28,233 nucleotides of DNA. Source: a virus (lineage: Duplodnaviria > Caudoviricetes). The stretch spans positions 1 through 28,233 of the IMG/VR virus record IMGVR_UViG_3300046718_000308; one strand, written 5' to 3'. Each line of letters starts with the position of its first letter. Positions within the stretch are counted from its first letter, which is position 1. Below the pieces are notes generated by a model, which ran no database searches, had not been told where the DNA came from, and worked only from the letters and a program-made list of their open reading frames with translations. Of the stretch, positions 5,418 through 27,256 are shown piece after piece. Made by a program: the position numbers and the translations under genes.

Positions 5418-5624
5418 ATGAGTGAAATCGTCGCAGATTGGGAATCGCATGTTATCGGTGAACGTGAACTCGTGAGTTGGGATCGACCGGATGGACAGAC
5501 TTATCACAATGTGCCGATTGTCTATTTGCGCGAAGTGACGCAAGCGGAATACCTTGCGACGAAGCCACACTGTCCGCCCTCTCGTATTGTCGGCGCCAGG
5601 TTTTGGGAAGTGAGTGTTGACTGA
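5418..5624 (+). CDS. Hypothetical protein
   Basis: 68 aa ending FWEVSVD; overlaps the TerL start. Confidence 0.65.
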   Translation: MSEIVADWESHVIGERELVSWDRPDGQTYHNVPIVYLREVTQAEYLATKPHCPPSRIVGARFWEVSVD

Positions 5625-8048: not shown

Positions 8049-8331
8049 CACGGTTGACGACCTCCTGCGGCAGTCGCGCATGGCCCATATGCGCTATCAA
8101 GAGGCGATGCCGCGCATGGTGCCCAACGGACATGGAGGCGTGATGCCCAAGCCCGGGAACCTGCCGGCCATTCAGCCCGCCCTTGAGGAAGCCCAGCGCA
8201 CCCGGCTCGCCGCCCAGGCCTTAGATCCCGACCATCAGGATCCGGCGTGGCAATCTGACTACTCCAAAGGCACCGTCCATGATCAGTTGCTCGCCTTTTA
8301 CGCCGCGGAACTCGCGAAGGTGCCGGCATGA
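8041..8331 (+). CDS. Hypothetical protein
   Basis: 96 aa overlapping both neighbours; ATGA-coupled to the portal gene. Confidence 0.65.
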   Translation: MADTVDDLLRQSRMAHMRYQEAMPRMVPNGHGGVMPKPGNLPAIQPALEEAQRTRLAAQALDPDHQDPAWQSDYSKGTVHDQLLAFYAAELAKVPA

Positions 8332-10769: not shown

Positions 10770-11986
10770 TGCCCGGCCCGCTCGTCATTCAGAAGCCGGA
10801 GCTCAATGCGAGCATCAACCCGCAAGGGGCGTCGGTCTTCGATGCGCCCGGGCAGGGGATGTTGCGCAAGATCGTCGGCTGGCTGGGATTGGATGACCCA
10901 CAACAGATCATGAATGTCGGCATCGCGATGGACGTGGGGCCGATGGGCGGGGGGCTGCTCGAGAAGATTGCCGAGCGGTATCCGCGGTTCGCCAATGCGA
11001 TCAAGGCGTATCACGGGAGCCCGCACGATTTCGAGGCGTTCGATACGAGCAAGATTGGCACAGGAGAAGGGGCGCAAGCCTACGGGCACGGGTTGTATTT
11101 TGCGGAAAATCCGGCTGTGGCGCAGGAATACAAAAAGGCCCTGACTGATTTCGAGGTGCACGAGCCGAGCGGACGCATTATCGGCTCTGGTGGTCCGAAG
11201 CAGACATATAAGGGCACCATCGAGGATCGGGCACTCGCATGGGTGCAGGATGCCGCGAGCCGCAATGACATTGCCGACCCGTTCCAATTTGCGATAGGTA
11301 ACGCACGACGCGGGCTCTCAGATGATGCGAATGGCCAGGCGATTGTTGACCAGATCCGAAAGTGGCAGGATGCCGGAGCGATGATCAAGCCAGGCGGCCG
11401 GATGTATGAAGTGGGGATCAACGCGCACCCCGATCAGTTCCTCGATTGGGATAAGCCGATCAGCCAGCAATCGCCAGAAGTCCAACAGGCTCTTGATCGC
11501 ACCGGGTTGATGCCTGATTTACAGCGCTATGTCTCTGCGAATGCAGCGCGGTATCCAGATGGACCAGCAGGAGCCACGTTGCATGATATGGCCCGCTATT
11601 CGGGTTATTCCAGCCGTGAAATAGCAGACAAATTAAACGAAGCTGGCATTCCCGGCTTCAAGTATCTCGATCAGGGCTCGCGCGCAATGCCCTATCGTGG
11701 CGATCCGGCCTTCCTGCATGCCGCGCAGTCGTTCAAAGACAGCGGCGCCGCGCCAGATGCCGCACTCGCCGGATTGCAATCGGCCTATCCGAAAGCACCG
11801 TTGACGGATTTACACGGCGCCGTGAACGAATTGTATGGCACGAGTTTAGGCCAGACGCGTAACTTCGTCGTGTTCGATGCGAAGACCGTCGACATCCTCA
11901 AGAAGTATGGCCTGCTCTTGCCCGCAGCCGGCGCAGGCCTCGCCGCCAGTCAACCAGCCCCCACGCCGACACTAGGAGATCAGTAA
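10769..11986 (+). CDS. ADP-ribosyltransferase-fold protein (ART-PolyVal-like), possibly virion-packaged
   Basis: AYHGSPHDFEAFDTSKIGTGEGAQAYGHGLYFAE...A..Y, MYEV.I, FLDWDKP, GIPGFKYLD, NFVVFD. Confidence 0.75.
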   Translation: MPGPLVIQKPELNASINPQGASVFDAPGQGMLRKIVGWLGLDDPQQIMNVGIAMDVGPMGGGLLEKIAERYPRFANAIKAYHGSPHDFEAFDTSKIGTGEGAQAYGHGLYFAENPAVAQEYKKALTDFEVHEPSGRIIGSGGPKQTYKGTIEDRALAWVQDAASRNDIADPFQFAIGNARRGLSDDANGQAIVDQIRKWQDAGAMIKPGGRMYEVGINAHPDQFLDWDKPISQQSPEVQQALDRTGLMPDLQRYVSANAARYPDGPAGATLHDMARYSGYSSREIADKLNEAGIPGFKYLDQGSRAMPYRGDPAFLHAAQSFKDSGAAPDAALAGLQSAYPKAPLTDLHGAVNELYGTSLGQTRNFVVFDAKTVDILKKYGLLLPAAGAGLAASQPAPTPTLGDQ

Positions 11987-12549: not shown

Positions 12550-13749
12550 ATGAGTAAACCCGGAGGCCCGCTGCCGCTCGGGCACGGGCACGGCCCGATT
12601 AAGCCGGCGGCTTTTGTCCACGCCTCGGATCTCGCCCCGAACCCGCCCAATTTCGGGAGTGTGCGCCGCGCCATTCTGAATGGCTTGGTCTCGGCGCAAG
12701 GCGAGGCCACCGGCTGGAACGCGCTCCGGGATCTCATCCCCGATTCCGCAGTCGTCCGGACGTCGGATACCGTCGTCACCATCACGTTGCCGGCGCTCGC
12801 CGGCTATGACATTACCGCCTCCGAAACACTGACCGATACCGTGCCCGCGGTGGCCGTGGCGGCCCAGACCGCGATTGTGGCGACCCCCACGATAGGCATC
12901 ACGGCGGCGCCCATCGTCGCCACGGGCGCGTCCACGGGGGCCTCCACGGTCACGGCCGTGGGCCAAGCGGCCGATCTGAGCACGGGCACGAGTATGGGCG
13001 CCTCGACGGTGACCGTGGTCGGGGCGGCGTCATCACTGGCCACGGGCGCCTCGAGCGGGGCCGCGAGCGTCACCGCGGTGGGCGCCGCCTCAGATGTCAG
13101 CGTGGGCGCCTCGAGCGGCACGGCCACTGTCGTGGGGATTGGCATCGACAACGCGCTGGGCATTGGCGTCTCGGTGGGCGATTCGACCGCGACGGCGGTG
13201 GGACAGGGCACCGCGTCGACGGCCGTCAGTCTCGGCGCGGCCTCCGTCACCGCGGTCGGTCAGGCGCAGGTCGAGGCCACGGGCACCAGCACGGGCGCGG
13301 CCACCGTGCTCGCCCAAGGCCAGACCAGCAATCCGGTGGCGTCCGCTGACGGCCTCGCGACGGTCGTGGGCATCAGTGCGGTCGAGGCCGTAGGCGTGGG
13401 CGTGGCGCAGGGCGATGCGGCGGTGAATGCGTCCAGCCCGCCGACTGTGGCGCTCGGTGGGGGCGGGTATCTGCGGCGGCCAGGCTATCGCTGGGATTGG
13501 TGGTCGGGCTGGAATAAGATCCCCGAGAAGCCTGTCGAGCAGAAGATATCTATTGGTGTCGGGCTCTCGCGCGGGTTTGCGTCGATCGCCAGTCATAGTG
13601 CCGTGCATCGCGTAGTCATGGGCACGGGCGTGGCCGCCGGGCAGGCGATGGTCACCGGCGCGGGCGAGCGCGAGGCCGTGAATCCGTTTGCACGGGCGGA
13701 ACAGGAAGAAGCGTTTTGGATGGGGCTGGATTTACCCTCGGCGGCCTAG
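12550..13749 (+). CDS. Fibre-like protein: 84-aa module plus ~20-aa G/A/S/T/V repeats
   Basis: SD GAGGGGG; module shared with 24245-27256; about 11 GxSxGxATVxAVG-type units; acidic-hydrophobic C-terminus EQEEAFWMGL. Confidence 0.7.
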   Translation: MSKPGGPLPLGHGHGPIKPAAFVHASDLAPNPPNFGSVRRAILNGLVSAQGEATGWNALRDLIPDSAVVRTSDTVVTITLPALAGYDITASETLTDTVPAVAVAAQTAIVATPTIGITAAPIVATGASTGASTVTAVGQAADLSTGTSMGASTVTVVGAASSLATGASSGAASVTAVGAASDVSVGASSGTATVVGIGIDNALGIGVSVGDSTATAVGQGTASTAVSLGAASVTAVGQAQVEATGTSTGAATVLAQGQTSNPVASADGLATVVGISAVEAVGVGVAQGDAAVNASSPPTVALGGGGYLRRPGYRWDWWSGWNKIPEKPVEQKISIGVGLSRGFASIASHSAVHRVVMGTGVAAGQAMVTGAGEREAVNPFARAEQEEAFWMGLDLPSAA

Positions 13750-13755
13750 AAAGCA

Positions 13756-13764
13756 TGCTAGACT
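13756..13764 (+). promoter_or_regulatory. Putative extended -10 promoter (TGcTAGACT)
   Basis: Intergenic TGn-TANNNT ending 9 nt before ATG 13774; no SD. Confidence 0.5.
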
Positions 13765-13773
13765 CTTGCGCAC

Positions 13774-14046
13774 ATGGCCAAATCGGTTCCCGAGAAGCGC
13801 CCGCGCAAGCCGCGCACGCTCGAGGAACGGGTGGCCCATCTCGAACACACCCTCGAACGCGTGGAGCGAATCTTTATGGCTACTGCTGCTGAACTCACGG
13901 CCGCTGTTGCGGCGCTGACCGATGCGGTCGCGAAACTGCCGGCGCCCGTGCCGCAGCTCATTACGCAGGAAGAACTCGACGCGGCCACGGCGGGCGTGAC
14001 GCAGGCGACGACCGATCTCGCCGAGAAGACGCCGCCGACGCCGTAA
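13774..14046 (+). CDS. Small coiled-coil protein
   Basis: LEERVAHLEHTLERVE and LTAAVAALTDAVAKL heptads; second in-frame ATG at 13876 with GGAG upstream. Confidence 0.7.
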   Translation: MAKSVPEKRPRKPRTLEERVAHLEHTLERVERIFMATAAELTAAVAALTDAVAKLPAPVPQLITQEELDAATAGVTQATTDLAEKTPPTP

Positions 14047-14055
14047 CCGACCGAC

Positions 14056-14197
14056 CGCGCGCCTAGATCCTGCAGATCGAATCGTCGGCTCGTCCCCGAC
14101 AGGCGCACGACAAGGACCACACGGGTGACGCCGTGCACATGGCTCGACATACGGGCCCTTTGCACGGCGTTTTCCGTTTGTGGGCGTGATTGGACGC
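14056..14197 (+). ncRNA. Candidate structured cis-regulatory RNA or attenuator upstream of the scaffold gene
   Basis: Three-way junction at 14056-14109, then a long hairpin with perfect 10-bp stem ACGCCGTGCA/TGCACGGCGT (14128-14137/14161-14170) followed by TTTCCGTTT. Confidence 0.55.
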
Positions 14198-14207
14198 AGA
14201 GAGGGCT

Positions 14208-15227
14208 ATGAGCGAGACGGACACCACGACGGCACCCGCGCCGACGCCGACCCAACCGGATACGTCCGAGATCCTGGCGAACGCCTCGCCTAAGGAACTC
14301 GCGGATTGGCGTCAAACAGGCGAACTCCCCCCGATGCCCGTGCCGGCGCCCGTGCCGGATGATGATGATCCCGATGAGCCGGACGACGAGCCGGAGCCGG
14401 ATGTGCAGGCCGCGGTGCCCGCGCGCACCATTTCTAAGCGTCAACAGAAACTCAACGACAAGATCCGCCAAGGCGTCGAGGCCGAACTCGCCCGGCGTGA
14501 GGCGCTCGGCCGTTCACCGGCCCCTGCAGCCCGTCCGGAGCCACAGCCGGCCCCCTCAGCCGCCGAGGATGACCCGGAGCCGCAGCCGACGAACCTGGCG
14601 AAGTATCCCGGCGGCGAATATGACCCGAAATACGTGCGGGATGTCACCGCGTGGGACCGCCGACAGGAACGCAAGCACGACGAGTCGCAGGCGCAGGCGC
14701 GCGTCCAGCACGAGCAGCAGGAAACCTCGTTCCGCACGGCGGTCAAAGCCACGTCCGAGGCCTTTTCGGCCCGGTTTACGGCGGACCCGACGTTCAAGGA
14801 CCAGATCGATCAGGGGTTGATGGAAGCGCTGATTCCCGCCTCCCAACTCCCGGCAGGCATGTCCGTTTTGCCGATTCATATCATTGCCCAGGAATTGCTT
14901 GGCAACCCGGAGACCGCGCCGGATGTCACGCACTATCTCTCGACCCATCCCGCCGAACTCGCGCGTCTCACTGCGCTGGATCCGCGGGGCGTGCCGGTTT
15001 TATCTGTCAACCAACTCATTCGCGAGATGGGACGGATTGAAGCCGGGCTGAAGCGGACGGCTCCGGAGCCGCCCAATACGATTACCTCAGCCCCATCGCC
15101 CCCGACCCGACTCGGCGACCGATCGACCGCTCCGGTCGATGCGGAGGAACGAGCCTTGGAAAAGCGGGATTATGTGGGCTACAAAGCGGCCGCGGATGCT
15201 CGTGATCTCGCCGCCAGGACACGCTAA
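14208..15227 (+). CDS. Capsid scaffolding protein
   Basis: SD GAGAGG, ATG 14208; acidic/Pro-rich N-terminus, coiled coils, YLSTHPAELARL...IREMGRIEA, TSAPSPP; TAATG overlap with the coat gene. Confidence 0.8.
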   Translation: MSETDTTTAPAPTPTQPDTSEILANASPKELADWRQTGELPPMPVPAPVPDDDDPDEPDDEPEPDVQAAVPARTISKRQQKLNDKIRQGVEAELARREALGRSPAPAARPEPQPAPSAAEDDPEPQPTNLAKYPGGEYDPKYVRDVTAWDRRQERKHDESQAQARVQHEQQETSFRTAVKATSEAFSARFTADPTFKDQIDQGLMEALIPASQLPAGMSVLPIHIIAQELLGNPETAPDVTHYLSTHPAELARLTALDPRGVPVLSVNQLIREMGRIEAGLKRTAPEPPNTITSAPSPPTRLGDRSTAPVDAEERALEKRDYVGYKAAADARDLAARTR

Positions 15228-16486
15228 TGCCTGCAAATTTGTTTGAAGTCTCGACGTGGATCTCGATGGAAGTGCTGCGTCAGGTCACCAATCCGATGGA
15301 GTTTGCGCCGTTTTTCAACACCGATTACAACGGCGAACTGACCAAGCCCTACCCGGTCGGCGATTCGTTTCAGGTGCCCTTCCCGAAGGCCTTTCTCCCG
15401 AACGATGACAACACGCTCGGTTATACGCCCCAGCCGATCCAGTCGCGGCACGCGACGGTGACGCTGGACCGTGTGGCCAAGGTGCATTTCGAGTGGGATG
15501 CCCTCGAGGCGGCCCTCCGACTGCCCCGGCCGAAGGAAGCGATTCAGCGCAACATCATCATGCCGGCGAAGCGCGCGCTGCTCGCGAAGATCGAAAGCGA
15601 CTGCGCGAAGTGGGCGTATCTGAATACGCCGAACGTGGTGGGGATTCTCGGCACGAACCCGGCGAGCTTCGACGCGGTGTATGGCGCCGCGGGTCAGCGC
15701 ATTGCGGAAGTCGGCGGGATTGCCGGCGACCACGGCATGTTCCTGACGCCCGGTGTCACGCGTGCCCTCCGAGCCACAGTCGTGTCGCAGTTCAATCCGC
15801 CCGATGCGATTTCCAAAATGTGGAAGTCGGGCTCGATTGGCGAGGCGAACGGCTTCGATACGTATCAGTCGGCCTTCGTCTACCGGCACACGGCCGGCAC
15901 ATGGGCGGGCAACGTGTCGATTACGACGACCCAGACGGGCACGGCGGCGATCAACTCGCTGACCCTGACCTGCACGAACGGCGACACGTTCAAGACCGGC
16001 GACCGGTTCAACATTGCCCTCGTGAACGATGTCAACTACGACACGAAACGCTCGACGGGCACGCTGAAGCAGTTCGTGTATACGGGCGTCAACCAGACGA
16101 TTTCCGGCACCTCGGCCACGATCACGTTCACGCCTGATATCTACGGCCCCGGCTCGCCCTTCCAGAACGTGGATGCGCTCCCGGTCGCCACGTCGTTGCT
16201 GACACTCTGGCCCGGCACCTCATCGCCCAACGGCAAAGTCGGCGCGGTCAACATCGCGATGGGCAAGAATGCGTTTGCGCTCGTGGGTGTGCCGCTCGAC
16301 CTCCCGCCGGTGGGGGGCTCGGTGGTCATCTCCTCGCAGACCCGCGATCCGAACAGCGGCTTGTCGGTCGGCGTGCTGCGCATGTTCGAGCCGACACTGA
16401 TGCGGTGGATCAACCGGATCGATTGTGCCTACGGCTTTGGTAACTTCTGGAATGACCGCGACAGCGTGGCTGTTGCCTCCGCATAA
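15227..16486 (+). CDS. Major capsid protein, P22 gp5-like
   Basis: VGDSFQVPFP, I-domain-like HTAGTW...KTGDRFNI...STGTLKQFV, C-terminal RIDCAYG; 419 aa; follows the scaffold. Confidence 0.9.
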   Translation: MPANLFEVSTWISMEVLRQVTNPMEFAPFFNTDYNGELTKPYPVGDSFQVPFPKAFLPNDDNTLGYTPQPIQSRHATVTLDRVAKVHFEWDALEAALRLPRPKEAIQRNIIMPAKRALLAKIESDCAKWAYLNTPNVVGILGTNPASFDAVYGAAGQRIAEVGGIAGDHGMFLTPGVTRALRATVVSQFNPPDAISKMWKSGSIGEANGFDTYQSAFVYRHTAGTWAGNVSITTTQTGTAAINSLTLTCTNGDTFKTGDRFNIALVNDVNYDTKRSTGTLKQFVYTGVNQTISGTSATITFTPDIYGPGSPFQNVDALPVATSLLTLWPGTSSPNGKVGAVNIAMGKNAFALVGVPLDLPPVGGSVVISSQTRDPNSGLSVGVLRMFEPTLMRWINRIDCAYGFGNFWNDRDSVAVASA

Positions 16487-16497
16487 AGGACAGACCC

Positions 16498-16947
16498 ATG
16501 AGCATCATTTCAGCCGTTCCCGCGAAAACCTACGCGCAGTTCTCGAGCATCGTCTACCCGACGAATGCCACCACGCAGATGACCGTCACCACGGCGACCA
16601 CGCCGGTGCAGATGACGACGGCCCAGCTCTTTCAGGGCCTGTTGCCAGTCGATTGCCAGGATGCCGGCAGCATCACGACCCCGACCGCGGCGCAGATTGT
16701 GGCGGCCATTCCCGGTTGCCAGGTCGGCACCGCGTTTGACCTCGATGTGGTCAATTACGGGGATACGACCCTGACGCTGGCGCTCGGCACCGGCGTGACC
16801 AAGACCACGATTGCCACCGTGTCGTCCGTCCTGACGATGGTGACCTTGGTGAGCAAGCGGTTCAAGTTCATCGTGACGACCACGACGCCCGGCTCGGAAG
16901 CCGTGACGGTGTGGGCCTTCGGGAGCACGGCGGCGGCGGTCGCGTAA
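16498..16947 (+). CDS. Putative capsid decoration protein
   Basis: Directly after the coat gene, SD AAGGA; TTPTAAQIVAAIP...GTAFDLDVVN...TLALGTGVT. Confidence 0.6.
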   Translation: MSIISAVPAKTYAQFSSIVYPTNATTQMTVTTATTPVQMTTAQLFQGLLPVDCQDAGSITTPTAAQIVAAIPGCQVGTAFDLDVVNYGDTTLTLALGTGVTKTTIATVSSVLTMVTLVSKRFKFIVTTTTPGSEAVTVWAFGSTAAAVA

Positions 16948-16959
16948 TCAGTCACACTC

Positions 16960-16991
16960 AGGGGCCTCGCCCTTTCGGGGGCGGGCCTCTT
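16960..16991 (+). terminator. GC-rich UUCG hairpin; weak terminator or mRNA-stabilising stem
   Basis: AGGGGCC-T-CGCCCT-TTCG-GGGGCG-GGCCTCT after the decoration gene; U-tract is poor. Confidence 0.55.
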
Positions 16992-17008
16992 CACCGAGGG
17001 AGCTCGAC

Positions 17009-17248
17009 ATGGCTGTAGCACTGACCTTCCCGCGCGTCCTCTACAAACCGGAGGGCGAGCATTGCCTGGTCACGGACAAGGACGAATACGACCGCGCCAA
17101 GGGTGACGGCTGGAAAGATGACGCGCCCAAGGGCTGGAACAATGTGCCCGATCCGGCGAATCCGGGGGGCACCTTGCCGCCGAAGCCGCCGACCGCGCCG
17201 CCTCCCCCGAAAGGCGAGGCGCCCAAGGCCACGCCGGTGGTCAAGTGA
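17009..17248 (+). CDS. Small Pro-rich head-region protein
   Basis: SD GGGAG; FPRVLYK...V...EY..A...GW.D.P. Confidence 0.7.
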   Translation: MAVALTFPRVLYKPEGEHCLVTDKDEYDRAKGDGWKDDAPKGWNNVPDPANPGGTLPPKPPTAPPPPKGEAPKATPVVK

Positions 17249-17670
17249 CACGGATTGCCCTCGGCATCTGTCTCGTCTGGCTGGCGCTCCTCGCGCCGGT
17301 CCATGCGCAGCAGAAAGGCGATCCCGTGCGATGCGTCGTGACGGTCTCCACCGCCACGTCTCTGACGGCCGTGGGTGGGGATTGTGTGGCCCATCCGGGC
17401 TTGTCGCTGAACATCACCGATATTCTCTCGGTGACGAATGCCGCGGGGATTGCAGCGGACAGTTACAACACGTTGAAATACGGCACGGGCACCACCTGCG
17501 GCACCGGCACGACGGTCTTTTGGTTCGCGTATACCACGGCGGCCACGCAGGCGACGGTCGTGGATAACCGCGTGACGCCGATCCGGTTGCCGCCAAATGT
17601 GGATGTGTGCTGGATAAACTCAACTGCCGGCAGCAAGGCGTGGGTGATCACGGGGTTTTACGCCCCATGA
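17245..17670 (+). CDS. Signal-peptide-bearing beta-sandwich protein
   Basis: MTRIALGICLVWLALLAPVHA-QQ; four Cys in the mature part; coupled to both neighbours. Confidence 0.7.
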   Translation: MTRIALGICLVWLALLAPVHAQQKGDPVRCVVTVSTATSLTAVGGDCVAHPGLSLNITDILSVTNAAGIAADSYNTLKYGTGTTCGTGTTVFWFAYTTAATQATVVDNRVTPIRLPPNVDVCWINSTAGSKAWVITGFYAP

Positions 17671-17891
17671 ACCTCGCGTATGATCCGGGCGAACTCGAGG
17701 CGATTCGGGCGCATGTCGTGGGGCAAACCCTGCTCGAGCTCCCCGCCCAGACGGCGATTGGCTTAGCCTGTGCGGTCCTGCTGCATTACGCGGTGGAACA
17801 GCCCGACATGGTGCGCACGGTGCTGCACGAGCCGGTCGTGCGCGACGGATTCCGCGGAAAAAGTTTACTGAAAACCCTGACGCGGACCTGA
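17667..17891 (+). CDS. Hypothetical protein
   Basis: ATGA-coupled, 74 aa. Confidence 0.6.
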   Translation: MNLAYDPGELEAIRAHVVGQTLLELPAQTAIGLACAVLLHYAVEQPDMVRTVLHEPVVRDGFRGKSLLKTLTRT

Positions 17892-17912
17892 GAAGGCCGC
17901 AGGAGTCTCCCG

Positions 17913-18353
17913 ATGGCAAAAAGTGCGGTCCACGCGAATTCCTTCCTCCTCTTGATGTTCAATGCCACGCTCTACGCGAACGTCGCGATCAACGCGACGA
18001 GCTCGCCCATTACGAACATCTTCGCCAGTCTCCACACGTCGGACCCTGGCACGGCCGGCGACCAGACGACGAACGAAATGACCACCGGCGCTTACAATAC
18101 GTATGCGAGAGTCAGCGTCGCGCGCACGTCGGGTGGCTGGACGGTCACGACGAACAGCGTCTCTCCGGTGGCGGCGATCACGTTCCCCGCCGGTGTGTCG
18201 GGCTCGGGTGCGACGGCCACACACTTCGCGCTCGGCTCGCTGACGTCCGGCGCCGGTGTCCGGTTCTACTCGGGCACGATCACGCCCAACATCGCGTGTG
18301 GTGCTGGCGTCACGCCCTCGCTCTCCACGGCCTCGACGGTCACCGAGACCTAA
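17913..18353 (+). CDS. Small fibre-associated beta-sandwich protein (Gp80-like family)
   Basis: SD AGGAG; SLHTSDPG...NE...YARVSVAR...W...ITFP...THFALG...YSGTI. Confidence 0.7.
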   Translation: MAKSAVHANSFLLLMFNATLYANVAINATSSPITNIFASLHTSDPGTAGDQTTNEMTTGAYNTYARVSVARTSGGWTVTTNSVSPVAAITFPAGVSGSGATATHFALGSLTSGAGVRFYSGTITPNIACGAGVTPSLSTASTVTET

Positions 18354-18557
18354 ATGCCGATTGTTACGGCGATTGGCATGGCGGTCGGGCAGGAATCCGG
18401 CGATCCGCGCGATGCGCGTCTTCAGGCCGCGGTCAATGCCGAGATCCATCGGTGCCTGGCCGATGGGCTGTCGGCGGATGGCGATGCGGACATCATTCGG
18501 GATCGGATGAAAGCGGCCCATGCGGCGGAACTGAAGGCCATCGACGAGGGGCGATGA
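18354..18557 (+). CDS. Hypothetical protein
   Basis: 67 aa abutting both neighbours. Confidence 0.65.
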   Translation: MPIVTAIGMAVGQESGDPRDARLQAAVNAEIHRCLADGLSADGDADIIRDRMKAAHAAELKAIDEGR

Positions 18558-21094
18558 CGCCCGCGCAGATCGGGGCCAAGCTGGCCGCCGATATGGTGGC
18601 GGGGGTGCAAGCGGCGTCCGCGAGCGGGTTGAGTATGACGCCCGCCGATGCCGTGGCGGTCAAAAGCTACGTGGATGGAGCCTACGCCTATGCCGCGAGT
18701 GCGATCGTGAGTCCCGCGAGCGTCGGACGGGTGCCGGCCGGCTGGATTGCCTTTACGGCGCCCGCGGTCCTAACCGGGATCACGAATTACACCGTGCGGC
18801 TGCGCATTGCGAACAGCCCAACGGTCATTGGCACGCTCAGTCTCGGGTTGCCGACGCCGGACGCCTACGGCGTGATTACGGCCGATTGCACGGCGCTCTT
18901 TACGGGCCGGGCGGCGGATAACTATCAGACCTCGATCGCGATTACCTATCCGACGGGCGTGGTCGATTCGGGGGTGTCGCCGCCGTTTATCCTGCCCCTG
19001 ACCGTCGCCACGGGCACCTTCAAGACGGTGGGGCCGGGGAAGACCTACGCGACCGTGCAGGCCGCGGTGACGGCCGCGGTGGCGGGGGATACGATTCTCA
19101 TTGACCCCAACATCACCTATACGGAAAACGTCACGCTCCCCAATAAAGGCGCGTTGGCGGCGCCGATCACCCTGACCACGGCGGCCGATCTGAGTCTCTT
19201 GCCGCGCGCCGGCCGTCGCACGAATCCCTCGTATGCGCCGCTGATGCCCTTGATCGTCTCACCCGGCAGTGGCATTTCGTCGATCATTATCGCGCCCGGC
19301 GCGAGTAACTACGTGCTGCGGCATTTGAACGTCGGGGGCGTGCCGTTTGGCTTCAATGCCATCATTAAGATTGGCGCAAACGACAGCACGCAACAGTTTT
19401 ACGCGGATGAGCCGCACCATATCACCGTCGATCAGTGCTACATCCACGGCGGGGACGTCTGCGGCCAGAAGATCGGGATTTGGACGCATGGCCGCTATAT
19501 CACGATCACGAACAACTACATCGACCAGATCAAATCGGTCGGGCAGGACTCGCAAGCGATTAGCGGCTCGAATGGCCACGGGCCGCTGACGGTCATCAAT
19601 AATTTCATTCGGGGCGGCACCGAGCCCTTCATGCTGGGCGGGGCCGATCCGAACGTGCGCACCTACATGACCGTGACGAGCATTCTGACTGCCACGGCGG
19701 TGAATGTGACGTGTTCGGAAGCGGGCCATACGCTGTCTGAACTGACCGTCGGCCAGGGCCTCAGTATCCTCGTCGGGGGCGCCTGGACGTTCACGACCAT
19801 CACGGGGATCACGGGTGGAGGCGCGTCGGGGGTGGTGTCGTTTGCGCCGGTCGCGGGATCGGTGGATGTGCCCGGCGGCTTACGGGCGGGCGTGACGCTG
19901 GGCATGGAGGGGCCGGGCTTCGGCCTCATTTTCAGACAGAACCTCTGCGGGAACGCCGCGGAATGGTTTAACGGCAACCTCCAGGCACCGGTGAATGTGC
20001 AAGCGGTGGCGGGGGCCGGGGGTGGCACGCTGGCGGCGGGCATCTATTTCTATACGGTCCAAGGCTTCAATCCGAACGGCTATCAAGCCAATCCGGTGTT
20101 CTACGTCAATAGCAACGAATCCCTCGAGGTGCGCGCGACCTTGGGTGCGACCGGGCATGTCACGGTGACGTGGACGCCCGATCCGCTGGCGACGATCTTT
20201 CGGGTGTGGCGAGGCGTGACCCCGGGCGCCCGCACGCAATACCACGACGCGACGGGCTCTTCGTATGTGGACGACGGCACGGCGATGGTGGCGGCCACGC
20301 CTTTTGGCGCGACGGCGCATACCATCAAGAACATGTTCGAGCTCAAGGCCGTGCAGAACGCCCAGATCGATAGCAACGTGTTTCAGTATTGCTGGACGTG
20401 GATCAAAACCGTCAATCAAGAGGGCGCGGGATCCTACCTGCAGACGAAAAACGTGGTCATTGAGAAGAACATCTATCGGCACTGCGATGGCTGGCTCGAG
20501 GTGCATGGCACCGAGATTCCCAGTGGATCGGGGTTCCCCTATCCCGGGCCGATGGTCAATCTCACGGTGCGCAACAATCTCGTGTATGACTCCGGGCCGC
20601 AATGGGGGCAGGGCTTCGAGATCTTCGCGATGAACATCAGTAACGGCATCCAAGGCCTCGTCATTGATCACAATACGGTGATTCATACCACGAACTTGAC
20701 GGGTGGCGGCCTTGCAACGATGGACTCGGCGCAGTTGTTCCCGATCACGGGCCTGGCGCTCACGAATAACATGTTGCGCAAAGAAACGAACGGGATTAAA
20801 GCGGGAGGCGTGGCGGCGGGCACGGCGACCCTCACGGCCTGCACGACGGGCGGTTACACCTACAGCAAGAACGCGGTGGCGGATGCGACGGCGGGCACGG
20901 ATGGCGCGGCGAACTTCTATGAAGCGGCGGCGCTCTGGCAAGCCGAATTTGTGAACTATGTGGCCAGTGGCGAGGGCGCCGATTTCCGGCTGAAGCCCAC
21001 GAGCGCCTATCACCTCGCCGGCTCGGATGGCTTGGATCTCGGGGCGGATATTCCGGCCGTGCTCGCGGCCACGACGCCGGCCTTGACCGGATGA
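18554..21094 (+). CDS. Right-handed beta-helix (pectin-lyase-like) spike or putative depolymerase with inserted domains
   Basis: ATG 18554 (ATGA-coupled, SD GAGGGG); VGPGKTYATVQAAV...GDTILI, Asn-ladder rungs (ITITNNYI, LTVINNFI, VVIEKNIY, LTVRNNLV, LVIDHNTV), C-terminal DFRLKPTS...DLGAD. Confidence 0.8.
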   Translation: MTPAQIGAKLAADMVAGVQAASASGLSMTPADAVAVKSYVDGAYAYAASAIVSPASVGRVPAGWIAFTAPAVLTGITNYTVRLRIANSPTVIGTLSLGLPTPDAYGVITADCTALFTGRAADNYQTSIAITYPTGVVDSGVSPPFILPLTVATGTFKTVGPGKTYATVQAAVTAAVAGDTILIDPNITYTENVTLPNKGALAAPITLTTAADLSLLPRAGRRTNPSYAPLMPLIVSPGSGISSIIIAPGASNYVLRHLNVGGVPFGFNAIIKIGANDSTQQFYADEPHHITVDQCYIHGGDVCGQKIGIWTHGRYITITNNYIDQIKSVGQDSQAISGSNGHGPLTVINNFIRGGTEPFMLGGADPNVRTYMTVTSILTATAVNVTCSEAGHTLSELTVGQGLSILVGGAWTFTTITGITGGGASGVVSFAPVAGSVDVPGGLRAGVTLGMEGPGFGLIFRQNLCGNAAEWFNGNLQAPVNVQAVAGAGGGTLAAGIYFYTVQGFNPNGYQANPVFYVNSNESLEVRATLGATGHVTVTWTPDPLATIFRVWRGVTPGARTQYHDATGSSYVDDGTAMVAATPFGATAHTIKNMFELKAVQNAQIDSNVFQYCWTWIKTVNQEGAGSYLQTKNVVIEKNIYRHCDGWLEVHGTEIPSGSGFPYPGPMVNLTVRNNLVYDSGPQWGQGFEIFAMNISNGIQGLVIDHNTVIHTTNLTGGGLATMDSAQLFPITGLALTNNMLRKETNGIKAGGVAAGTATLTACTTGGYTYSKNAVADATAGTDGAANFYEAAALWQAEFVNYVASGEGADFRLKPTSAYHLAGSDGLDLGADIPAVLAATTPALTG

Positions 21095-23247
21095 CGCCCA
21101 TGATTCGCCTGCGGATGTTCTTCGCCGTGCTCCTGCTGCTCCTCGTGGGCATCTGGGGCTTTGTGCAGGCCCAGACCCCGCCGCCGGCCACGGGCGTCAT
21201 CGTGAATGCCTCCGGGACGCCCTCGGTGACCCTGCTCAGCCCCTCGACCGGATCCGTCGGCTCCTCGGTGACGATTACGGGTGTGGGGTTTGGATCGACG
21301 AAAGGCACGGGCACCGTCACCTTTAACGGCACCGTCGCCTCGACGACGGCCTGGAGTGCCACGAGCATTACCGCCACCGTGCCGGGCGTCTCGACGGGGC
21401 CCGTGGTGGTGACACAGAACGGATTAGCCAGTGCGGGCCTGACGTTTACGGTCACGGCCGGCACGCTGACGTGTTCGGGGACCTGTTGGTATGTGCGGTC
21501 CCTCACGGCCTGCGCGAATAACGGGAACGGGACGACGGCCAGCTGCGCGGCCACCGTGGGCGGCGCCGGGGCCTGGCGCGGCTTGGCCAACATTGCCTGG
21601 GGCTCCGTGGCAGCCGGATCGACCGTGAATCTGGTGGGCGGGGACACCTATACGGGCGGCCTGATCACGGGCGCCTCGGGCACGGCGGTCAGTCCGATCA
21701 CGATTGCCGTGGTGACGGGCTCCAGTAATACGGCGACGATTGATCTGGCGAATACGGTGGGATCGATTGGATTCCGCTTCAATACGAACTTCGTCACGAT
21801 TGATGGGCGCATCGGGCAGGCGACCACGGGCGCGACGAGCTACGGCCTGCGCGTGATCAATATTGCCTCGAATAGCACGACCAGTTCCTACTGCGGCTAT
21901 GCGGACAGCGTGCATCACGACATCATGCTCCACGTCGAGTGCAGCGGCCATACGCAAACGTCGCTCGATGATGTGGGCGGGGGCGTCTACTTTCACACCG
22001 TGGCGCCGGAAGCGAGTAACGGATTCGAGCTCGGGTATGGCTGGATTCACAGCGACATTCCGCCGGTGGTGATTACGACGATCACGGAATCGGGGACGAC
22101 GGCCACCGCGACGACGGCGACCCCGCACGGCTTTCCGTCCTCGGGGACGTATTACGTCGGCGTGAAGGATCCCAGCCTCGGCGGCCCCTGCCAGTTCGAT
22201 GGCGTGGTGACGAACAACTGTCCTGGCTATGAGGGGACGCGGTGGATCGCGACGACGACGAGCCCCACCACGTTCACGTATTCCATCGGGCGCACGATCG
22301 ACGGCGCGCACGATGCGATTCCGAGCGGCCTGGGCACCTCGAGCGGGGGGCAAGCGATCTATCACTGGGATGCCGCGGGCTCGTATGTCACGACGCACTC
22401 GAGCAGCACGACCTTCAACGTCGGCAAGATCCACGACATGCTGGTCGAGAACATTTTTCACGACGGGTTGAAGGGTGGCGCGAACCTCTCGATCTATAAC
22501 AACGTCATCAAACACGTCGAGGGGTCGGGCCATTCCGATTCGTTGCTGATTCAATCGGGCGGCTACGCGCAGATTTACAACAACTACATCGAGAAGTCGG
22601 CCGATCAGAATATCTATCTCGATAATCTGTTCGATGCGCCCTGCGCGCACCTCCGCGTCTACAACAACGTCCTGAACAGTAATCTCGGGTTCGGGATCAT
22701 CATTGACCCGGAAGGCGCGGCGGGCCAACCGCCGGCGTCGGCGAGCGGCTGCACGGCGGGTAGTCCGTCGTCCTGGGATGATCTGGTGATCCTGAACAAT
22801 ACCTTCGTCTCGGCCTCGAACGCACAGATTCGCAAGGGCCGCAGTAACCCGATCACGAACCTCGTCATTAAGAACAACATCTTCGGGGGCGGGCAGCTGG
22901 GCGGGACGTTGCAGGCGGAAATCTTCAACGGCATCGCGGCGAGTTTTCTCGATGCGAACGCCTGGGACTATGACGTGTATGCGGGCACGGGGGGCACGCT
23001 GATCACGAATTTCTCCGGGTCGAATCAGACGCTCGCCCAGATCCAGGCCCTCGGCACGCCGCGCGAGACGCACGGGGCGATGGGCACCGTGTCCTATACG
23101 AATGCGGCGGCACAGAACTACACCCTGGCCGCTGGCGATACCGCCGCGAAGGGGCAGGGGCTGAACCTGCTGGCCACCTATCCCTTCCTGGCGACGATGA
23201 AAGACGGCACGACGCGGACGGTGCCGTGGAATCGGGGCGCTTACTGA
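21091..23247 (+). CDS. Signal-peptide protein with IPT/TIG domain and right-handed beta-helix
   Basis: MIRLRMFFAVLLLLLVGIWGFVQA-QT; IPT LSPSTGSVGSSVTITGVGFG...WSATSITATVP; rungs LSIYNNVI, HSDSLLIQ, AQIYNNYI, LRVYNNVL, LVIKNNIF; ends WNRGAY. Confidence 0.8.
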   Translation: MTPMIRLRMFFAVLLLLLVGIWGFVQAQTPPPATGVIVNASGTPSVTLLSPSTGSVGSSVTITGVGFGSTKGTGTVTFNGTVASTTAWSATSITATVPGVSTGPVVVTQNGLASAGLTFTVTAGTLTCSGTCWYVRSLTACANNGNGTTASCAATVGGAGAWRGLANIAWGSVAAGSTVNLVGGDTYTGGLITGASGTAVSPITIAVVTGSSNTATIDLANTVGSIGFRFNTNFVTIDGRIGQATTGATSYGLRVINIASNSTTSSYCGYADSVHHDIMLHVECSGHTQTSLDDVGGGVYFHTVAPEASNGFELGYGWIHSDIPPVVITTITESGTTATATTATPHGFPSSGTYYVGVKDPSLGGPCQFDGVVTNNCPGYEGTRWIATTTSPTTFTYSIGRTIDGAHDAIPSGLGTSSGGQAIYHWDAAGSYVTTHSSSTTFNVGKIHDMLVENIFHDGLKGGANLSIYNNVIKHVEGSGHSDSLLIQSGGYAQIYNNYIEKSADQNIYLDNLFDAPCAHLRVYNNVLNSNLGFGIIIDPEGAAGQPPASASGCTAGSPSSWDDLVILNNTFVSASNAQIRKGRSNPITNLVIKNNIFGGGQLGGTLQAEIFNGIAASFLDANAWDYDVYAGTGGTLITNFSGSNQTLAQIQALGTPRETHGAMGTVSYTNAAAQNYTLAAGDTAAKGQGLNLLATYPFLATMKDGTTRTVPWNRGAY

Positions 23248-23438
23248 TGCGCCGCGAGCCAGGCCGAGCGGAACAACCAACCAATCGGCCCGCCGGCAGG
23301 CGTCTGGCAGGTCAGGCCCGTCACGGGATCCGTGATCTGGTCCATCAGTTGGCCCTCGAGCTCGAGGCGTGTCTGCACGAAGCGGGCGCGGACCTGTTTG
23401 TAGGTGAGGAGTGGATCGGAATGCATGGGTGGTCGCAT
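23241..23438 (-). CDS. Possible 65-aa antisense protein (alternative to the + ORF 23247-23516)
   Basis: Strong SD AAGGAGAGG before ATG; MRPPMHSDPLLTYKQVRARFVQTRLELEGQLMDQITDPVTG... Confidence 0.4.
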   Translation of the reverse strand: MRPPMHSDPLLTYKQVRARFVQTRLELEGQLMDQITDPVTGLTCQTPAGGPIGWLFRSAWLAAHQ

Positions 23439-23516
23439 AGCAAGAACCTCTCCTTCGCCCAGTCCCGGCGAAACCTCGCGACAAGTCCGATGGCGGGCAG
23501 ACCGATGGTGCCCTAA
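23247..23516 (+). CDS. Possible 89-aa hypothetical protein
   Basis: TGATG overlap upstream and TAA-ATG abutment downstream, but no recognisable motif. Confidence 0.35.
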   Translation: MRREPGRAEQPTNRPAGRRLAGQARHGIRDLVHQLALELEACLHEAGADLFVGEEWIGMHGWSHSKNLSFAQSRRNLATSPMAGRPMVP

Positions 23517-24245
23517 ATGGCGAACTGGCTGACCACCAAGGGGTTTGACTTCCGCGATAGCTTGGCCGCCGTGGACTCTAACGGGTCTACCGAAGCGGGC
23601 CACAATCGGGTCTTTGTTTATAACACCGCTCAGACCGTGTCGAACGGGTCCATCGTCACGGACCCAGGCGGGCTATATCCGACCACGCGGACGGTAGGCG
23701 GGGATTCCATCACCTATGGCTGGGTCACCGATATTCCGACGACTCGTGATCGGAACTCTGGCAATGATGAACGGCTCGTCGGGATTCACTTTGCGCCGGG
23801 CTCCGCGAATGTGCTCAATTTCCGCGTCGATCTGCCGGCGGCGGGCAGTTACAAAGTGCGGTTGGCGATTGGCGACAACGACGGCGCGCATTCCCCGATG
23901 CATGTGCTCATTTTGGACAATACTACGACGGTGCTGACCAGAAATGAAGGGACGACCGCAGGCAACAGCTACATTGACGCTGCCGGGACAGAGCGAACTG
24001 AAACCAATTGGGTGAGCAGCAATGCGCAATCCGGCATTCTGACGTTTGCCACGACCACGTTGTTCATGCGCCTAGACGCCTCGGTGGATTTGACCACGAT
24101 TGCGCATCTCGAAATCGAGCAAGTCACGAGTGCGAGCGCCGCCCTCACGGGCACGGCGACGGCGAGCATTACCGAAGCGGATATCGTGGCCGGCGGCAAG
24201 ACGATCGTCATTACGCTCACGGGTGATACCTTCATCCCGTCCTGA
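23517..24245 (+). CDS. Galactose-binding-like (CBM-like) protein with a C-terminal domain fragment
   Basis: GFDF...YGW...RDR...D.RL..IHF...FRVDLPAAGSYKVRLAIGD resembles the YxiM/agarase-type galactose-binding domain; ends SAALTGTATASITEADIVAGGKTIVITLTGDTFIPS. Confidence 0.65.
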   Translation: MANWLTTKGFDFRDSLAAVDSNGSTEAGHNRVFVYNTAQTVSNGSIVTDPGGLYPTTRTVGGDSITYGWVTDIPTTRDRNSGNDERLVGIHFAPGSANVLNFRVDLPAAGSYKVRLAIGDNDGAHSPMHVLILDNTTTVLTRNEGTTAGNSYIDAAGTERTETNWVSSNAQSGILTFATTTLFMRLDASVDLTTIAHLEIEQVTSASAALTGTATASITEADIVAGGKTIVITLTGDTFIPS

Positions 24246-27200
24246 TGGCGCTTCCCACGTTCCTCAACTCCGTCGAAGTCGAGCGCACGGGCACGACGAA
24301 CCCGCAAACCTGGACGCACGTCCCGAACGGCACGGCGAAGGCCATTGTCGTGGCCATTGTCCACGGCACGAGCAGCACGGATCACGTCTCGGCCGTCACC
24401 TATGGTGGCGTGGCGATGACCCGAAAGATTCGGGCGACCGATACCGTCACTGAGCCGGGCGCCGCGGAATTGTGGTTCCTCGGCACGGGCATTCCGACCG
24501 GCAATCAAACCGTCAGCGCGAGTCTGAATACGAATACGACGGATGACATGCATTTCGTCTCCATGTCGTTCAGTGCGCCTGGGGATACGACCGCCTTCGT
24601 CTCCGGCTCCGTCAGCGAAAATCAAGCCGATCCCTCCGTCACGCTGGCCTACGGGGGGCGCACAGCGGTCGCGGTGGCCGCCCTCTATGGCGGGGGCGCG
24701 ACGTCGGCGGCCTTCACCCCCAACGGCAACTGCACGACGGTCCAGACGTTCAATATTGGCGCGAGTGCGTTCTATTCGAGTGTCATTCGGCAAACGACCG
24801 CCGGGACCGCCGACTTTGCCATTGGCGGCACGGCCGTCTCGGATGACGTCGCGTTCGTGGCGATGGCCCTGTCGGAGATTGCCAGTATTGGGGTCGTGGC
24901 AGGGGCCGCGACGGTCACCGGCGTGGCGTCCTTCTCAAGCTTCCGGCGCACGATTCTGAACGGACTGGATTCGGCGCAGGCCGAGGGCACCGGGTGGGAC
25001 GCGAAGAAGACCCTCATTGCCGAGTCTGCCGTCGTGCGGACCTCCGCGACGGTCGTCACGATCACGCTCCCGGCGATCGCCTCGTATGACATCACCGCCT
25101 CGGAGGTGATTACCGACACGGTGCCGGCGATTACGCTCGTCGGCGGGCTCGACCTCGTGGCGAGCCCAACACTCGGCATTACGGCCCTGAACGTGGGCGC
25201 CGTCACAGGAAATGCCACCGTCACCGCGGTGGGATCCTCGACGGCCGTCTCGAGCGGCGCCTCATCCGGCACGGCCACGGCCACTGGCGTGGGACGCGCC
25301 ACGGCGGTGAGTGCAGGCACGATCGCGGGCCTCGCCACGGCCGCCATGATCGGCCTCTCCACGGTCGTCAGCGTGGGCGCGGCGACCGGTGGGGCCACCG
25401 TGTTAGGCGTCAAGACGGGCGCCAGTAATGCGGTGTCGGTCGGGGCGGCGACGGTCTCCGGTGTGGGCGCGGCCTCGTCGCTCGGCATTGGCGCGGTGCC
25501 GTTTACCGACGATTTCAATCACTTCTCCATCGGGTTTACGTGGGAAACGGTGCTCGGGACGCCGTGGGATATTGTCAGCTCGCTCTATCTGAAGCCCTTC
25601 ACCGCGAATGCCTCGACCGCGGTGCGTGTGCGCGGCACGTTTGTCGATGACCAGTTTGCAGAAGTGTTCACCGAAGTGCCCACGCCGGGCGGGCTCGTGG
25701 CCTCGCAGGCTGGGCCAGCGGTGCGCATGGATGGCGTGGGCAGTTGCTATTACCTGCGGATCCTCTCCTCGAGCGTCTCCCTCTATAAACGGGTTCTCGG
25801 CGTCGAAACGCTCCTGAACAGCGCGGCCGTGACCACGCCGCTGGATACGCTGACCAAATTCCGGATTACCGTGGCCGGATCGCTGATCACCGTGATGGCG
25901 AACGGGGCGCAGATCTTTACGCAGAGTGATACGGCCCTCATTAGTGGTAAGCCGGGTTGTGCGGGCCTGATGGGGGATGCCGCGATCTTGCCGCGGTTTG
26001 ATAATTTCAGTTCGACGCTCCCCGGGGCGCTCGCGCAGGGGGCGGGCGCCTTTACCTCGGCGCAGCCAGGCGCCAGCACCGGACTCGCCACCGTGCTGGG
26101 CGTCGGTCAACCCCTGTCGCAAGCCATCGGGGCCTCGCTCGGGACGGCCTCCGTGGTGGGGCGGTATGGCGCCTTCGTCGATGCGCGGCGGCCGATTCTG
26201 AACGGGTTGGTCAGTGCGCAAAGCGAGACGCACGGCTGGAACGCGATCCGTGCGCTCATTCCCGATGCGGCCGTCGTGCGGACGTCGAATACGGTCGTCA
26301 CGATTACGCTGCCGGGCTTGCCGAGCTATGCGATCTCGGCGCTCGAGACGATTACCGATACCGTGCCGGGGATCGCCCTGAACAGCGGCCTCCCGCTGGT
26401 CGCGACGCCCACGTTTGGCGTGATCCCGAATAGCGAAGCGGATGGCGCGGTCGATGGGGTGGCGGATGTCCAAGGCATCAGCCAATCGACCTATCGGTCA
26501 CTCGCCGCGGCTGCCGGCTCGGCCACCGTCACCGGCGTCGGGGCCTCCCTCAGTGGCACGGGAGCGGGGATCGGGGCCGCTGTGGGCGCCGCCGTGCCCC
26601 TCGCCGCGAGCACCGTCAGTGCAGCGGGTGTTGGGATCGCGGTCGGGGCCGCCGGGGCCGATGGCCAGAAACAGGTCGGGAATCAGGGGATCAGTTTCTG
26701 CACCTCGACCGTCACCGCCGTGGGCACGGGCACGGTCGTGCGAGGCGCGACGGCGCAAGGGTCGGCCTCCGTCATCGGGGTAGGGTCCGCGTCATCGGTC
26801 GCTATCGGCGCCGCTACCGGCGCCGCCACGGTCCTGGGGAGTCAAGCCCTCGGCTCACTGGGCCTCGTCACGGGTGCGGCCGCAGTCAGTGGCGTGGGGC
26901 AATCGGTGGCGATTGGGGTGGGGAATGCGAGCGGCGGCTCGTCCGTCGTGGGGAGTGGGGCGGGCCTCGGCGCCTCGGTCGGCTTAGTTTTCGGCACGTC
27001 CACGGCCACGGCGGTCAGTAGTGGCAGTGGCACCGGCGTGGCGCAAGGGGATGCGCTGGTGCAAGGCGTGGGCATCGCGTTCCGGATCGGCGTCGGGGTC
27101 GTGACGGGCACCGCGATCGTCCTCGGCGGGGGCGGGAATGCCATTTCCGTGGGCCTGGCGGCCGGGGATTCGACGGTGACCGCCGTCGGGGGTGTGGTGG

Positions 27201-27256
27201 TGCCGAGCAGCTTTAAGCCGGCCTGGGCGAGTAACAGCAATCAGCGGGTAGCCTAA
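24245..27256 (+). CDS. Multidomain fibre/adhesin: beta-sandwich, two 84-aa modules, ConA-like lectin domain, ~20 G/A/S/T/V repeats
   Basis: VSAVTYGGVAMT domain; FTDDF...AGPAVR...YYLRI...FRITVAGSLITV...SGKPG...RFDNF at 25502-26020; C-terminal FKPAWASNSNQ. Confidence 0.75.
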   Translation: MALPTFLNSVEVERTGTTNPQTWTHVPNGTAKAIVVAIVHGTSSTDHVSAVTYGGVAMTRKIRATDTVTEPGAAELWFLGTGIPTGNQTVSASLNTNTTDDMHFVSMSFSAPGDTTAFVSGSVSENQADPSVTLAYGGRTAVAVAALYGGGATSAAFTPNGNCTTVQTFNIGASAFYSSVIRQTTAGTADFAIGGTAVSDDVAFVAMALSEIASIGVVAGAATVTGVASFSSFRRTILNGLDSAQAEGTGWDAKKTLIAESAVVRTSATVVTITLPAIASYDITASEVITDTVPAITLVGGLDLVASPTLGITALNVGAVTGNATVTAVGSSTAVSSGASSGTATATGVGRATAVSAGTIAGLATAAMIGLSTVVSVGAATGGATVLGVKTGASNAVSVGAATVSGVGAASSLGIGAVPFTDDFNHFSIGFTWETVLGTPWDIVSSLYLKPFTANASTAVRVRGTFVDDQFAEVFTEVPTPGGLVASQAGPAVRMDGVGSCYYLRILSSSVSLYKRVLGVETLLNSAAVTTPLDTLTKFRITVAGSLITVMANGAQIFTQSDTALISGKPGCAGLMGDAAILPRFDNFSSTLPGALAQGAGAFTSAQPGASTGLATVLGVGQPLSQAIGASLGTASVVGRYGAFVDARRPILNGLVSAQSETHGWNAIRALIPDAAVVRTSNTVVTITLPGLPSYAISALETITDTVPGIALNSGLPLVATPTFGVIPNSEADGAVDGVADVQGISQSTYRSLAAAAGSATVTGVGASLSGTGAGIGAAVGAAVPLAASTVSAAGVGIAVGAAGADGQKQVGNQGISFCTSTVTAVGTGTVVRGATAQGSASVIGVGSASSVAIGAATGAATVLGSQALGSLGLVTGAAAVSGVGQSVAIGVGNASGGSSVVGSGAGLGASVGLVFGTSTATAVSSGSGTGVAQGDALVQGVGIAFRIGVGVVTGTAIVLGGGGNAISVGLAAGDSTVTAVGGVVVPSSFKPAWASNSNQRVA

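Follow-up and report, generated by a model that had tools for sequence, protein, structure and literature searches.

A 28.2-kb virus record from a P22-like tailed phage (IMG/VR record IMGVR_UViG_3300046718_000308; hereafter the window, meaning the whole stretch of 28,233 nucleotides) carries what appears to be an immunoglobulin (Ig)-like domain cut at one loop. The first piece, a 36-residue plug, sits at the end of a protein whose remainder we call the cargo, while the second, an 84-residue socket, occurs three times in two rope-type proteins. We consider it probable that the pieces reunite non-covalently, with the plug of the cargo protein completing the Ig-like fold of a socket in trans. The terminal hairpin of the cargo would complete the sandwich of each socket, plugged cargo would be mounted at up to three sites per rope set on chain-like fibres, and an exchangeable, possibly sugar-binding module would thereby be displayed on the phage. 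The feature itself is real, widespread and under selection; binding in trans, the use of all three sockets, a location in the virion, Gp80-like beads on the ropes and a role in host adsorption are what we infer from it.

How secure are the pieces themselves? An earlier note, made from the letters of the window alone, had described an 84-residue module that occurs once in a 399-aa protein and twice in a 1003-aa protein, always with an abrupt start, as well as a 36-residue fragment closing the gene at 23517-24245 (24135-24242). Both descriptions are borne out, the first by alignment and a six-frame search. The three sockets align without gaps over 84 columns, with 62-67% amino-acid and 64-69% DNA identity, and the sequence before each is unrelated. 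Six-frame profile searches of the window return exactly three module matches and one fragment match (E 1e-18 to 1e-30); ten shuffled windows, used as a control for the profile searches, gave a single match in total at E<=0.01. The plug ends three residues short of the point where the sockets start, and the stop of its gene overlaps the start of the next gene (TGATG) in a different frame. The plug gene is found 11 kb downstream of socket 1, whose own gene is placed between the portal region and the scaffold gene. In G003 (96% complete), which has one plug and three sockets as the window does, the orthologue of the 399-aa protein holds its socket at the same place.

The earlier note had also stated that the two pieces are normally contiguous, and this holds. 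The fragment stands directly upstream of the module in seven of the first ten loci, for 132 of 158 distinct modules in viral loci, and for 556 of 582 modules in the best 120 of 1794 proteins, so that fragment and module hit adjacent segments of single proteins and the joined forms are the majority. The gap between the two is three residues in 84 of 107 joined copies. Altogether 707 distinct joined copies were gathered, with large proteins from bacterial genome bins among their carriers. In such proteins the joined domain forms tandem arrays (L164, L165, L166, L167, L176, L184 and L185); L164 has about 10 joined domains in one frame, in an array interrupted by frameshifts.

AlphaFold models one joined copy with a predicted local distance difference test score (pLDDT) of 97.4 and a predicted template-modelling score (pTM) of 0.90, the fragment contributing strands at 2-6 and 23-28 and a helix at 14-19. 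The closest solved folds to this model (VIA) are Ig-like, with a ChiW domain at Z 7.4 and a root-mean-square deviation of 3.0 with 101 aligned, a middling match that supports 'Ig-like' and nothing finer. Fragment and module are halves of one domain of about 125 aa with a predicted Ig-like fold. The joined profile found nothing significant among PDB sequences (best E 0.12), Foldseek gave no match in PDB or BFVD at E<=0.001, and an Atlas look-up of the joined domain returned unnamed clusters and a weak SWM_repeat lead. A weak profile match links the latter half of the module to DGF-1_5 (Pfam PF11038), which represents dispersed gene family 1 of Trypanosoma. At E<=0.01 the match is seen, weakly, for 4 of 107 joined members, and the window proteins lack it. 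The protein P0014 reaches 47 bits against this family (cut-off 25), but only at profile positions 57-118 of 120.

Contacts across the cut were taken from coevolution over the 707 joined copies, not from model coordinates. Twenty of the top 70 couplings span the cut, one of them reaching the linker only. The T5-I25 coupling closes an A-B hairpin within the fragment; strand B couples with the module strand at 81-86 (I25-V81, I25-T83, T27-V81, I24-L86), and strand A with the last strand (L4-A118, L4-F122). From T5-I25 together with the couplings of strand B to 81-86, strand B is predicted to lie between strand A and strand E, the module strand 81-86. A further coupling across the cut, of plug Glu14 with socket Glu57 and Thr95, suggests a possible metal site at the interface. 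The earlier note had spoken of strand complementation; donation of a piece is indeed what is predicted, but the piece consists of two strands plus a short helix and not of one strand. When socket 1 was modelled alone with its own leader, the socket reached a pLDDT of about 85-93 and the leader 50-60, and the strand due to pair with B dropped from five residues to three.

The cut is not peculiar to the window. Among the best 120 of 210 fragment matches, 82 are joined and 38, the window's own protein included, end 1-3 residues past the motif. A survey of the domains fused to the fragment, which the earlier note had proposed, yielded varied cargo: the cargo domains of 36 of these 38 free plugs fall into 28 blastp clusters, between which remote kinship may remain. 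A Pfam scan of the 36 cargo proteins found no family in 35. LamG is present in the cargo of L031 and P0190, and homologues of the window cargo, with plug, occur in P0123 and P0159. On the socket side, 12 of 52 rows were dropped as divergent or truncated joined forms (P0004, P0010, P0013, P0102, P0103, P0109, P0113, P0114, L048, L164, L184, L185), leaving 40 free sockets; contig-end and frameshift cases were dropped as well (L062, L072, L075, L105, L132, L137).

Do free plugs and free sockets keep company? We sorted 175 sequences into 126 groups by shared 25-mers, 112 of which were reached by module- or fragment-driven searches, and labelled them by hand. Both halves are free in 10 of the 112 locus groups, including that of the window, a socket alone in one (L024), a plug alone in none, and neither in 101 (Fisher p 2e-13). 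Orphan modules without an orphan fragment are therefore not usual, a point on which the earlier note had staked its proposal. Its core idea, that a domain is divided between genes, is restored in trans and brings exchangeable cargo, agrees with the joined majority and with free sockets accompanying free plugs; the trans binding itself is the inferred part. A metagenome scan for a plug followed by a stop gave 23 loci in 15 groups, with a socket visible in seven groups, and pattern scans for further cases added only L186 and L189, the latter being the same DNA as L145. One phage group (L143, L150, L154, L155) has a 49-codon frame that ends in the second half of the plug only, with no socket in 2.9 kb downstream; this frame is possibly a broken or repurposed plug.

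Substitution patterns indicate that plugs are under purifying selection. Between the plugs of the window and L003 there are 12 synonymous changes and one non-synonymous change, and over 190 plug pairs the mean proportion of synonymous differences (pS) is 0.71 and that of non-synonymous differences (pN) 0.18; for the window sockets against their orthologues, pN is 0.10-0.23 and pS 0.48-0.65. By blastn, L001 is 92% identical to the window up to 21452 and 81% downstream of an exchanged cassette, homology resumes inside the plug (at 24150 against L001 and 24138 against L003), and the cargo differs in each of the window, L001 and L003. As judged from these alignments, the plug marks the boundary of cargo exchange.

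The residues predicted to face each other across the cut are also retained. Hydrophobicity is kept at the level of joined domains at 7 of 8 tested interface positions in free sockets and at 9 of 9 in plugs. Scored over the 20-40 strongest predicted contacts, plug-socket pairs from one genome exceed mixed pairs (z 2.6-3.0, 11-14 groups). Control sets of non-contact positions have a mean near 0, and at most 1 in 60 of them scores as high as the contacts. Shared descent could lie behind part of this same-genome fit.

How might one domain have become two proteins? The loop at which the domain is cut bears in-frame insertions of about 158-248 aa in L114, L123, L165, L172 and P0016, that of L123 being a malectin, and the halves therefore tolerate separation in sequence. 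Clean fissions are seen in L041 and L141, where the socket starts from residue 3 of the next gene; in L151 a whole gene lies between the halves; L039 and L049 have an N-terminal plug; and P0014 and P0106 hold five and three tandem sockets, respectively, with no plug in the same protein. No viral locus was found for the P0014 sequence. Beyond its three tandem sockets, P0106 continues into a C-terminal segment that by eye looks like a small L155 protein with a phrog_644 match. Of the insertions tested, that of P0016 alone has homologues both in a cargo with a plug and in the domain that precedes a socket in L024; those of L114 and L172 have no homology to a pre-socket domain or cargo. In the window, the N-terminal domain of the 1003-aa protein occupies the spot where joined relatives carry in-frame insertions. 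Because the P0016 insertion and the middle domain of the window's 1003-aa protein match cargo domains, inserts, cargo and rope domains seem to be drawn from one pool. The likely route is insertion of a domain into the tolerant loop, a stop arising after the plug, and duplication of the freed socket.

Free-socket labels change 11 times on a 178-row tree, of which starred branches force two, and nine times on a 49-row tree, which suggests that free sockets arose repeatedly; a single origin is not rejected (approximately unbiased (AU) test, p=0.19). The earlier note had argued that one gene fission could not explain three sockets lacking the fragment. This argument fails, because fission followed by socket duplication would explain them, in line with the same AU value.

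Where would the sockets sit? Both socket-bearing window proteins have repeats with a 20-residue period, and the protein at 17913-18353 is a homologue of GP4 gp80, with PF23140 above its cut-off. In GP4 and A1002, Gp80-like proteins are dimers strung on a rope protein via beta-augmentation (PMC13730344). On the strength of the repeats and the gp80 homologue, both socket-bearing proteins are likely ropes of GP4-type chain-like fibres, which displaces the receptor-binding tip of the earlier note, and the 17913-18353 protein is, by analogy with GP4/A1002, predicted to be a bead that would bind to the ropes. Neither window rope matched the solved ropes in PDB, and a jackhmmer search for bead genes reached just the close relatives of the window. 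Small proteins with other PHROG matches are found close by in five further split or plug-bearing loci (L028, L049, L124, L155 and L039, the last also with PF23140). As for the cargo, the domain at 23517..24134 has no Pfam or PHROG match and resembles in Atlas a galactose-binding-like or malectin-like jelly roll (features 0.89, TM 0.59-0.65). Sugar binding, which the earlier note had assigned to it, thus stands as a fold-level lead only.

Several observations weigh against completion in trans. All three window sockets have Asp at domain position 102 (the D of TDTVP), which is hydrophobic in 93% of joined domains; Asp is found there in 6 of 40 free sockets against 4 of 707 joined copies. The pLDDT of about 85-93 obtained without the plug means that the socket may fold independently. 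Over all 3010 cross pairs the same-genome fit is not significant (p 0.07), the window plug served as the query by which plugs were collected, which inflates their conservation, and both co-occurrence and same-genome fit would also be expected from descent from one joined gene. Unpaired halves exist as well: the 6.4 kb of L024 contain two sockets but no plug; the plug of L186, 1.2 kb from the contig end, is unaccompanied by a socket in a record of 21.6 kb (32% complete); and 8 of the 15 metagenome plug groups have no visible socket, each with at most 2.9 kb downstream. PF23140 is present in just 3 of 11 split records, and together with the lack of a solved-rope match this means that the rope-and-bead setting is not general. 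The support is comparative throughout, and no cultured phage has a match to the module or the joined domain.

Could the halves instead be independent leftovers of fission? The socket would then fold alone or homodimerize as a rope spacer, while the plug would oligomerize or bind another virion protein, its DNA serving as a recombination anchor for cargo exchange. The fair-confidence model of the isolated socket, the tandem sockets without plugs within one protein and the restart of homology to relatives exactly at the plug would all suit such a history, and shared descent would explain the co-occurrence. We nevertheless judge it unlikely, given that facing residues are retained in both halves, that the same-genome fit is limited to predicted contacts, that none of the 112 groups is plug-only and that the plug is constrained at the protein level (12 synonymous changes to one). 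A narrower alternative keeps trans completion for socket 2 alone, as the partner left from the original insertion and fission, with sockets 1 and 3 filled otherwise or empty. Socket 2 does lie one domain downstream of the plug, like the in-frame insertion forms, and translation of the long rope is coupled to that of the single plug gene. Sockets 1 and 3, however, equal it in interface conservation and are under purifying selection (pN 0.10-0.23 against pS 0.48-0.59), G003 retains all three sockets with its one plug, and several other loci have two or three sockets per plug, which makes this restriction quite improbable.

It is harder still to credit completion without any plug, whether in cis by an upstream rope strand or by the Gp80-like bead. 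Beta-prone repeat segments precede several sockets, and beta-augmentation joins beads to ropes in A1002 (PMC13730344), but sockets begin from residue 3 in L041, L141, P0014 and P0106 and follow Ser/Pro-rich linkers in L039 and L141, and the leader of socket 1 is modelled at a pLDDT of only 50-60; we regard this explanation as very unlikely. Covalent joining of the halves by DNA recombination, splicing, ribosomal bypass or protein splicing seems to us extremely improbable. A TCC codon precedes both the plug stop and socket 2 in the window, as bypass between matching codons might use; in L001 and L003 the codon before socket 2 is TCG, and ribosomal bypass was rejected because TCC is not kept there. 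Nor do the regions upstream of the three sockets have a DNA motif in common, while 11 kb separates socket 1 from the plug and the plugs of L039 and L049 are N-terminal. An Rfam scan of the window found no match, the predicted fold is Ig-like and no intein family was matched. In four DNA runs, all contigs, 0 of 9 listed joints connect the plug end to a socket, although contigs cannot show absence and one of the runs, X1, may be the source of the window. An isopeptide or ester link is a separate possibility, so far unsupported: in the column table and couplings, neither a Lys/Asp nor a Thr/Gln pair is seen to be coupled between the halves. Fold completion in trans by the plug, at each of the sockets, is for us the most likely reading.

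The closest mechanistic parallel is a joint in the Lactococcus phage Tuc2009, in which a 25-residue C-terminal hairpin of BppU completes the sheet of BppA domain 2 into a titin-like domain, with a carbohydrate-binding module (CBM) attached (PMC4742702). A terminal hairpin of one virion protein that completes an Ig-like sheet in another, and so attaches an accessory module, is what the joined homologue and the couplings predict here. The layout differs: the hairpin is on the scaffold in Tuc2009, whereas in the window and the split loci the cargo bears the plug and the scaffold bears the sockets. A scaffold here can hold several sockets, the cargo is of many types, and the domain also exists in joined form and with insertions. 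Neither the BppU extension nor BppA domain 2 showed homology (hhalign probability 0.1-1.0%), and a PDB profile search at E<=1 listed neither chain. By analogy, then, the window pair would work like the Tuc2009 joint without being a member of that family.

The chain-like fibres of the podophages GP4, VP1 and A1002 resemble the present setting in their Gp80-like gene and perhaps in their periodic rope-type proteins, and A1002 also has a split nozzle completed by strands of a second protein; split Ig sockets in the rope and plug-tagged cargo are not described in the sections consulted (PMC13730344). Phage fractured genes with split inteins (PMC2677866) are a further parallel: a gene is broken where something was inserted, sometimes with a separate gene between the halves, as in L151, and its product is reunited as protein, as we propose here. 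The element broken here is a structural domain with a predicted Ig-like fold; the Pfam scans showed no intein family, and there was no sign of splicing.

Outside phages, two well-known systems invite comparison. In chaperone-usher pili a single N-terminal donor strand stands in for the missing last strand of an incomplete Ig fold, and every subunit holds both donor and groove, hence polymerization. The likeness would be an incomplete Ig fold filled by a piece of another chain; the difference is that the first two strands would be donated here, mostly from a C-terminus. The window system should form no polymer, because no window protein bears both halves. Cohesin-dockerin scaffoldins share the tandem sockets (five in P0014, three in P0106) and the short terminal tag on varied cargo. 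A dockerin is a separately folded tag, and the cohesin-dockerin fold is unrelated to the Ig-like domain considered here, in which the tag is a piece of the socket's own domain; no cohesin or dockerin Pfam family was found on plugs, sockets or joined domains. A bolder claim, which we offer tentatively and at slightly less than an even chance, is that this is a portable tag-and-catcher system of uncultured phages and a viral counterpart of cohesin-dockerin: a 36-residue tag at either terminus would load dozens of different host-binding domains, possibly metal-locked, onto scaffolds with up to five tandem sockets, and the whole evolutionary path, from joined domain through loop insertion and fission to multiplied sockets, would still be visible in genomes.

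Why would a phage divide a domain in this way? If the proposal is true, the host-binding module could be changed without touching the fibre: cargo ahead of a conserved tag would be swapped, and the number of sockets would set valency. The known forms would also grade naturally from a single domain into a docking pair of two parts, so that the emergence of protein interactions via gene fission could be tested with small recombinant proteins, and a 36-residue tag with a 9-kDa catcher, chainable in tandem, could serve as a display tool. Novelty is confined to the family, its reversed multivalent layout and its spread, because the mechanism is already solved in Tuc2009. A literature search of partial coverage returned no description of the plug-socket family.

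Table 1. Positions in the window of the plug, the sockets, the proteins that carry them and neighbouring genes
Feature	Position	Strand	Description
Terminase	5614-7044
Portal	8328-10769
Short rope-type protein, 399 aa	12550..13749	+	34-aa Pro/Gly leader, socket 1, then 20-residue-period repeats
Socket 1	12652..12903	+	C-terminal 84 aa of the predicted Ig-like domain, without strands A and B; from residue 35 of open reading frame (ORF) 12550-13749
Rope repeats of short protein	12904..13449	+	Identity 0.36 at lag 20; next best lag 0.24
Scaffold	14190-15227
Coat	15227-16486
Gp80-like small protein	17913..18353	+	Pfam PF23140 E 5e-9; PDB 8jou_a E 1.5e-5
718-aa protein	21091..23247	+	Signal-peptide-like start (by eye) and TIG domain; rest inside exchanged cassette; no plug or socket
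Exchanged cassette	21453..24149	+	No blastn match to relative L001
Cargo domain, 206 aa	23517..24134	+	Galactose-binding-like/malectin-like jelly roll, as a lead only
Plug	24135..24242	+	Predicted strand A, short helix, strand B, DTF; residues 207-242 of ORF 23517-24245 (242 aa)
Long rope-type protein, 1003 aa	24245..27256	+	N-terminal globular domain, socket 2, repeats, middle domain, socket 3, repeats
N-terminal domain of long rope-type protein	24245..24883	+	Between plug and socket 2; homologous to pre-socket domain of P0088
Socket 2	24932..25183	+	Starts at residue 230 of ORF 24245-27256
Middle domain	25505..26044	+	Homologous to P0204 plug-bearing cargo
Socket 3	26174..26425	+	Starts at residue 644 of ORF 24245-27256

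The window sequence is present in soil and rhizosphere DNA metagenome runs, two of which may be its source; no RNA run is listed with it. Promoter and terminator scans of the window gave signals no higher than the shuffled level. Among its other genes, 610-1713 encodes a C5 cytosine DNA methyltransferase-like protein, and the gene after the portal (10769-11986) has a weak, below-cut-off match to ART-PolyVal (ADP-ribosyltransferase); its counterpart in G003 has a similar start, is shorter and ends differently. For the ORF listed as 18296-21094 the probable start is the ATG at 18554, which gives 846 aa and matches its relatives in L001 and L003. At 20393 the X1 contig and one X4 contig hold 24 extra bases in frame, and the window is for this reason possibly short of eight codons of a large protein.

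Structural-module proteins with signal-peptide-like hydrophobic starts, recognized by eye, often adjoin plug or socket genes; they are encoded at 17245-17670 and 21091-23247 in the window and likewise at L024:713-1837, L049:6497-8314, L123:7691-10423 and from 261 in L142. Methyltransferase- or glycosyltransferase-like genes, also identified by eye, are found amid the fibre genes at L028:3302-5181, L049:3325-5210, L140:1613-3492 and L039:11879-15098, and downstream of the plug in L186.

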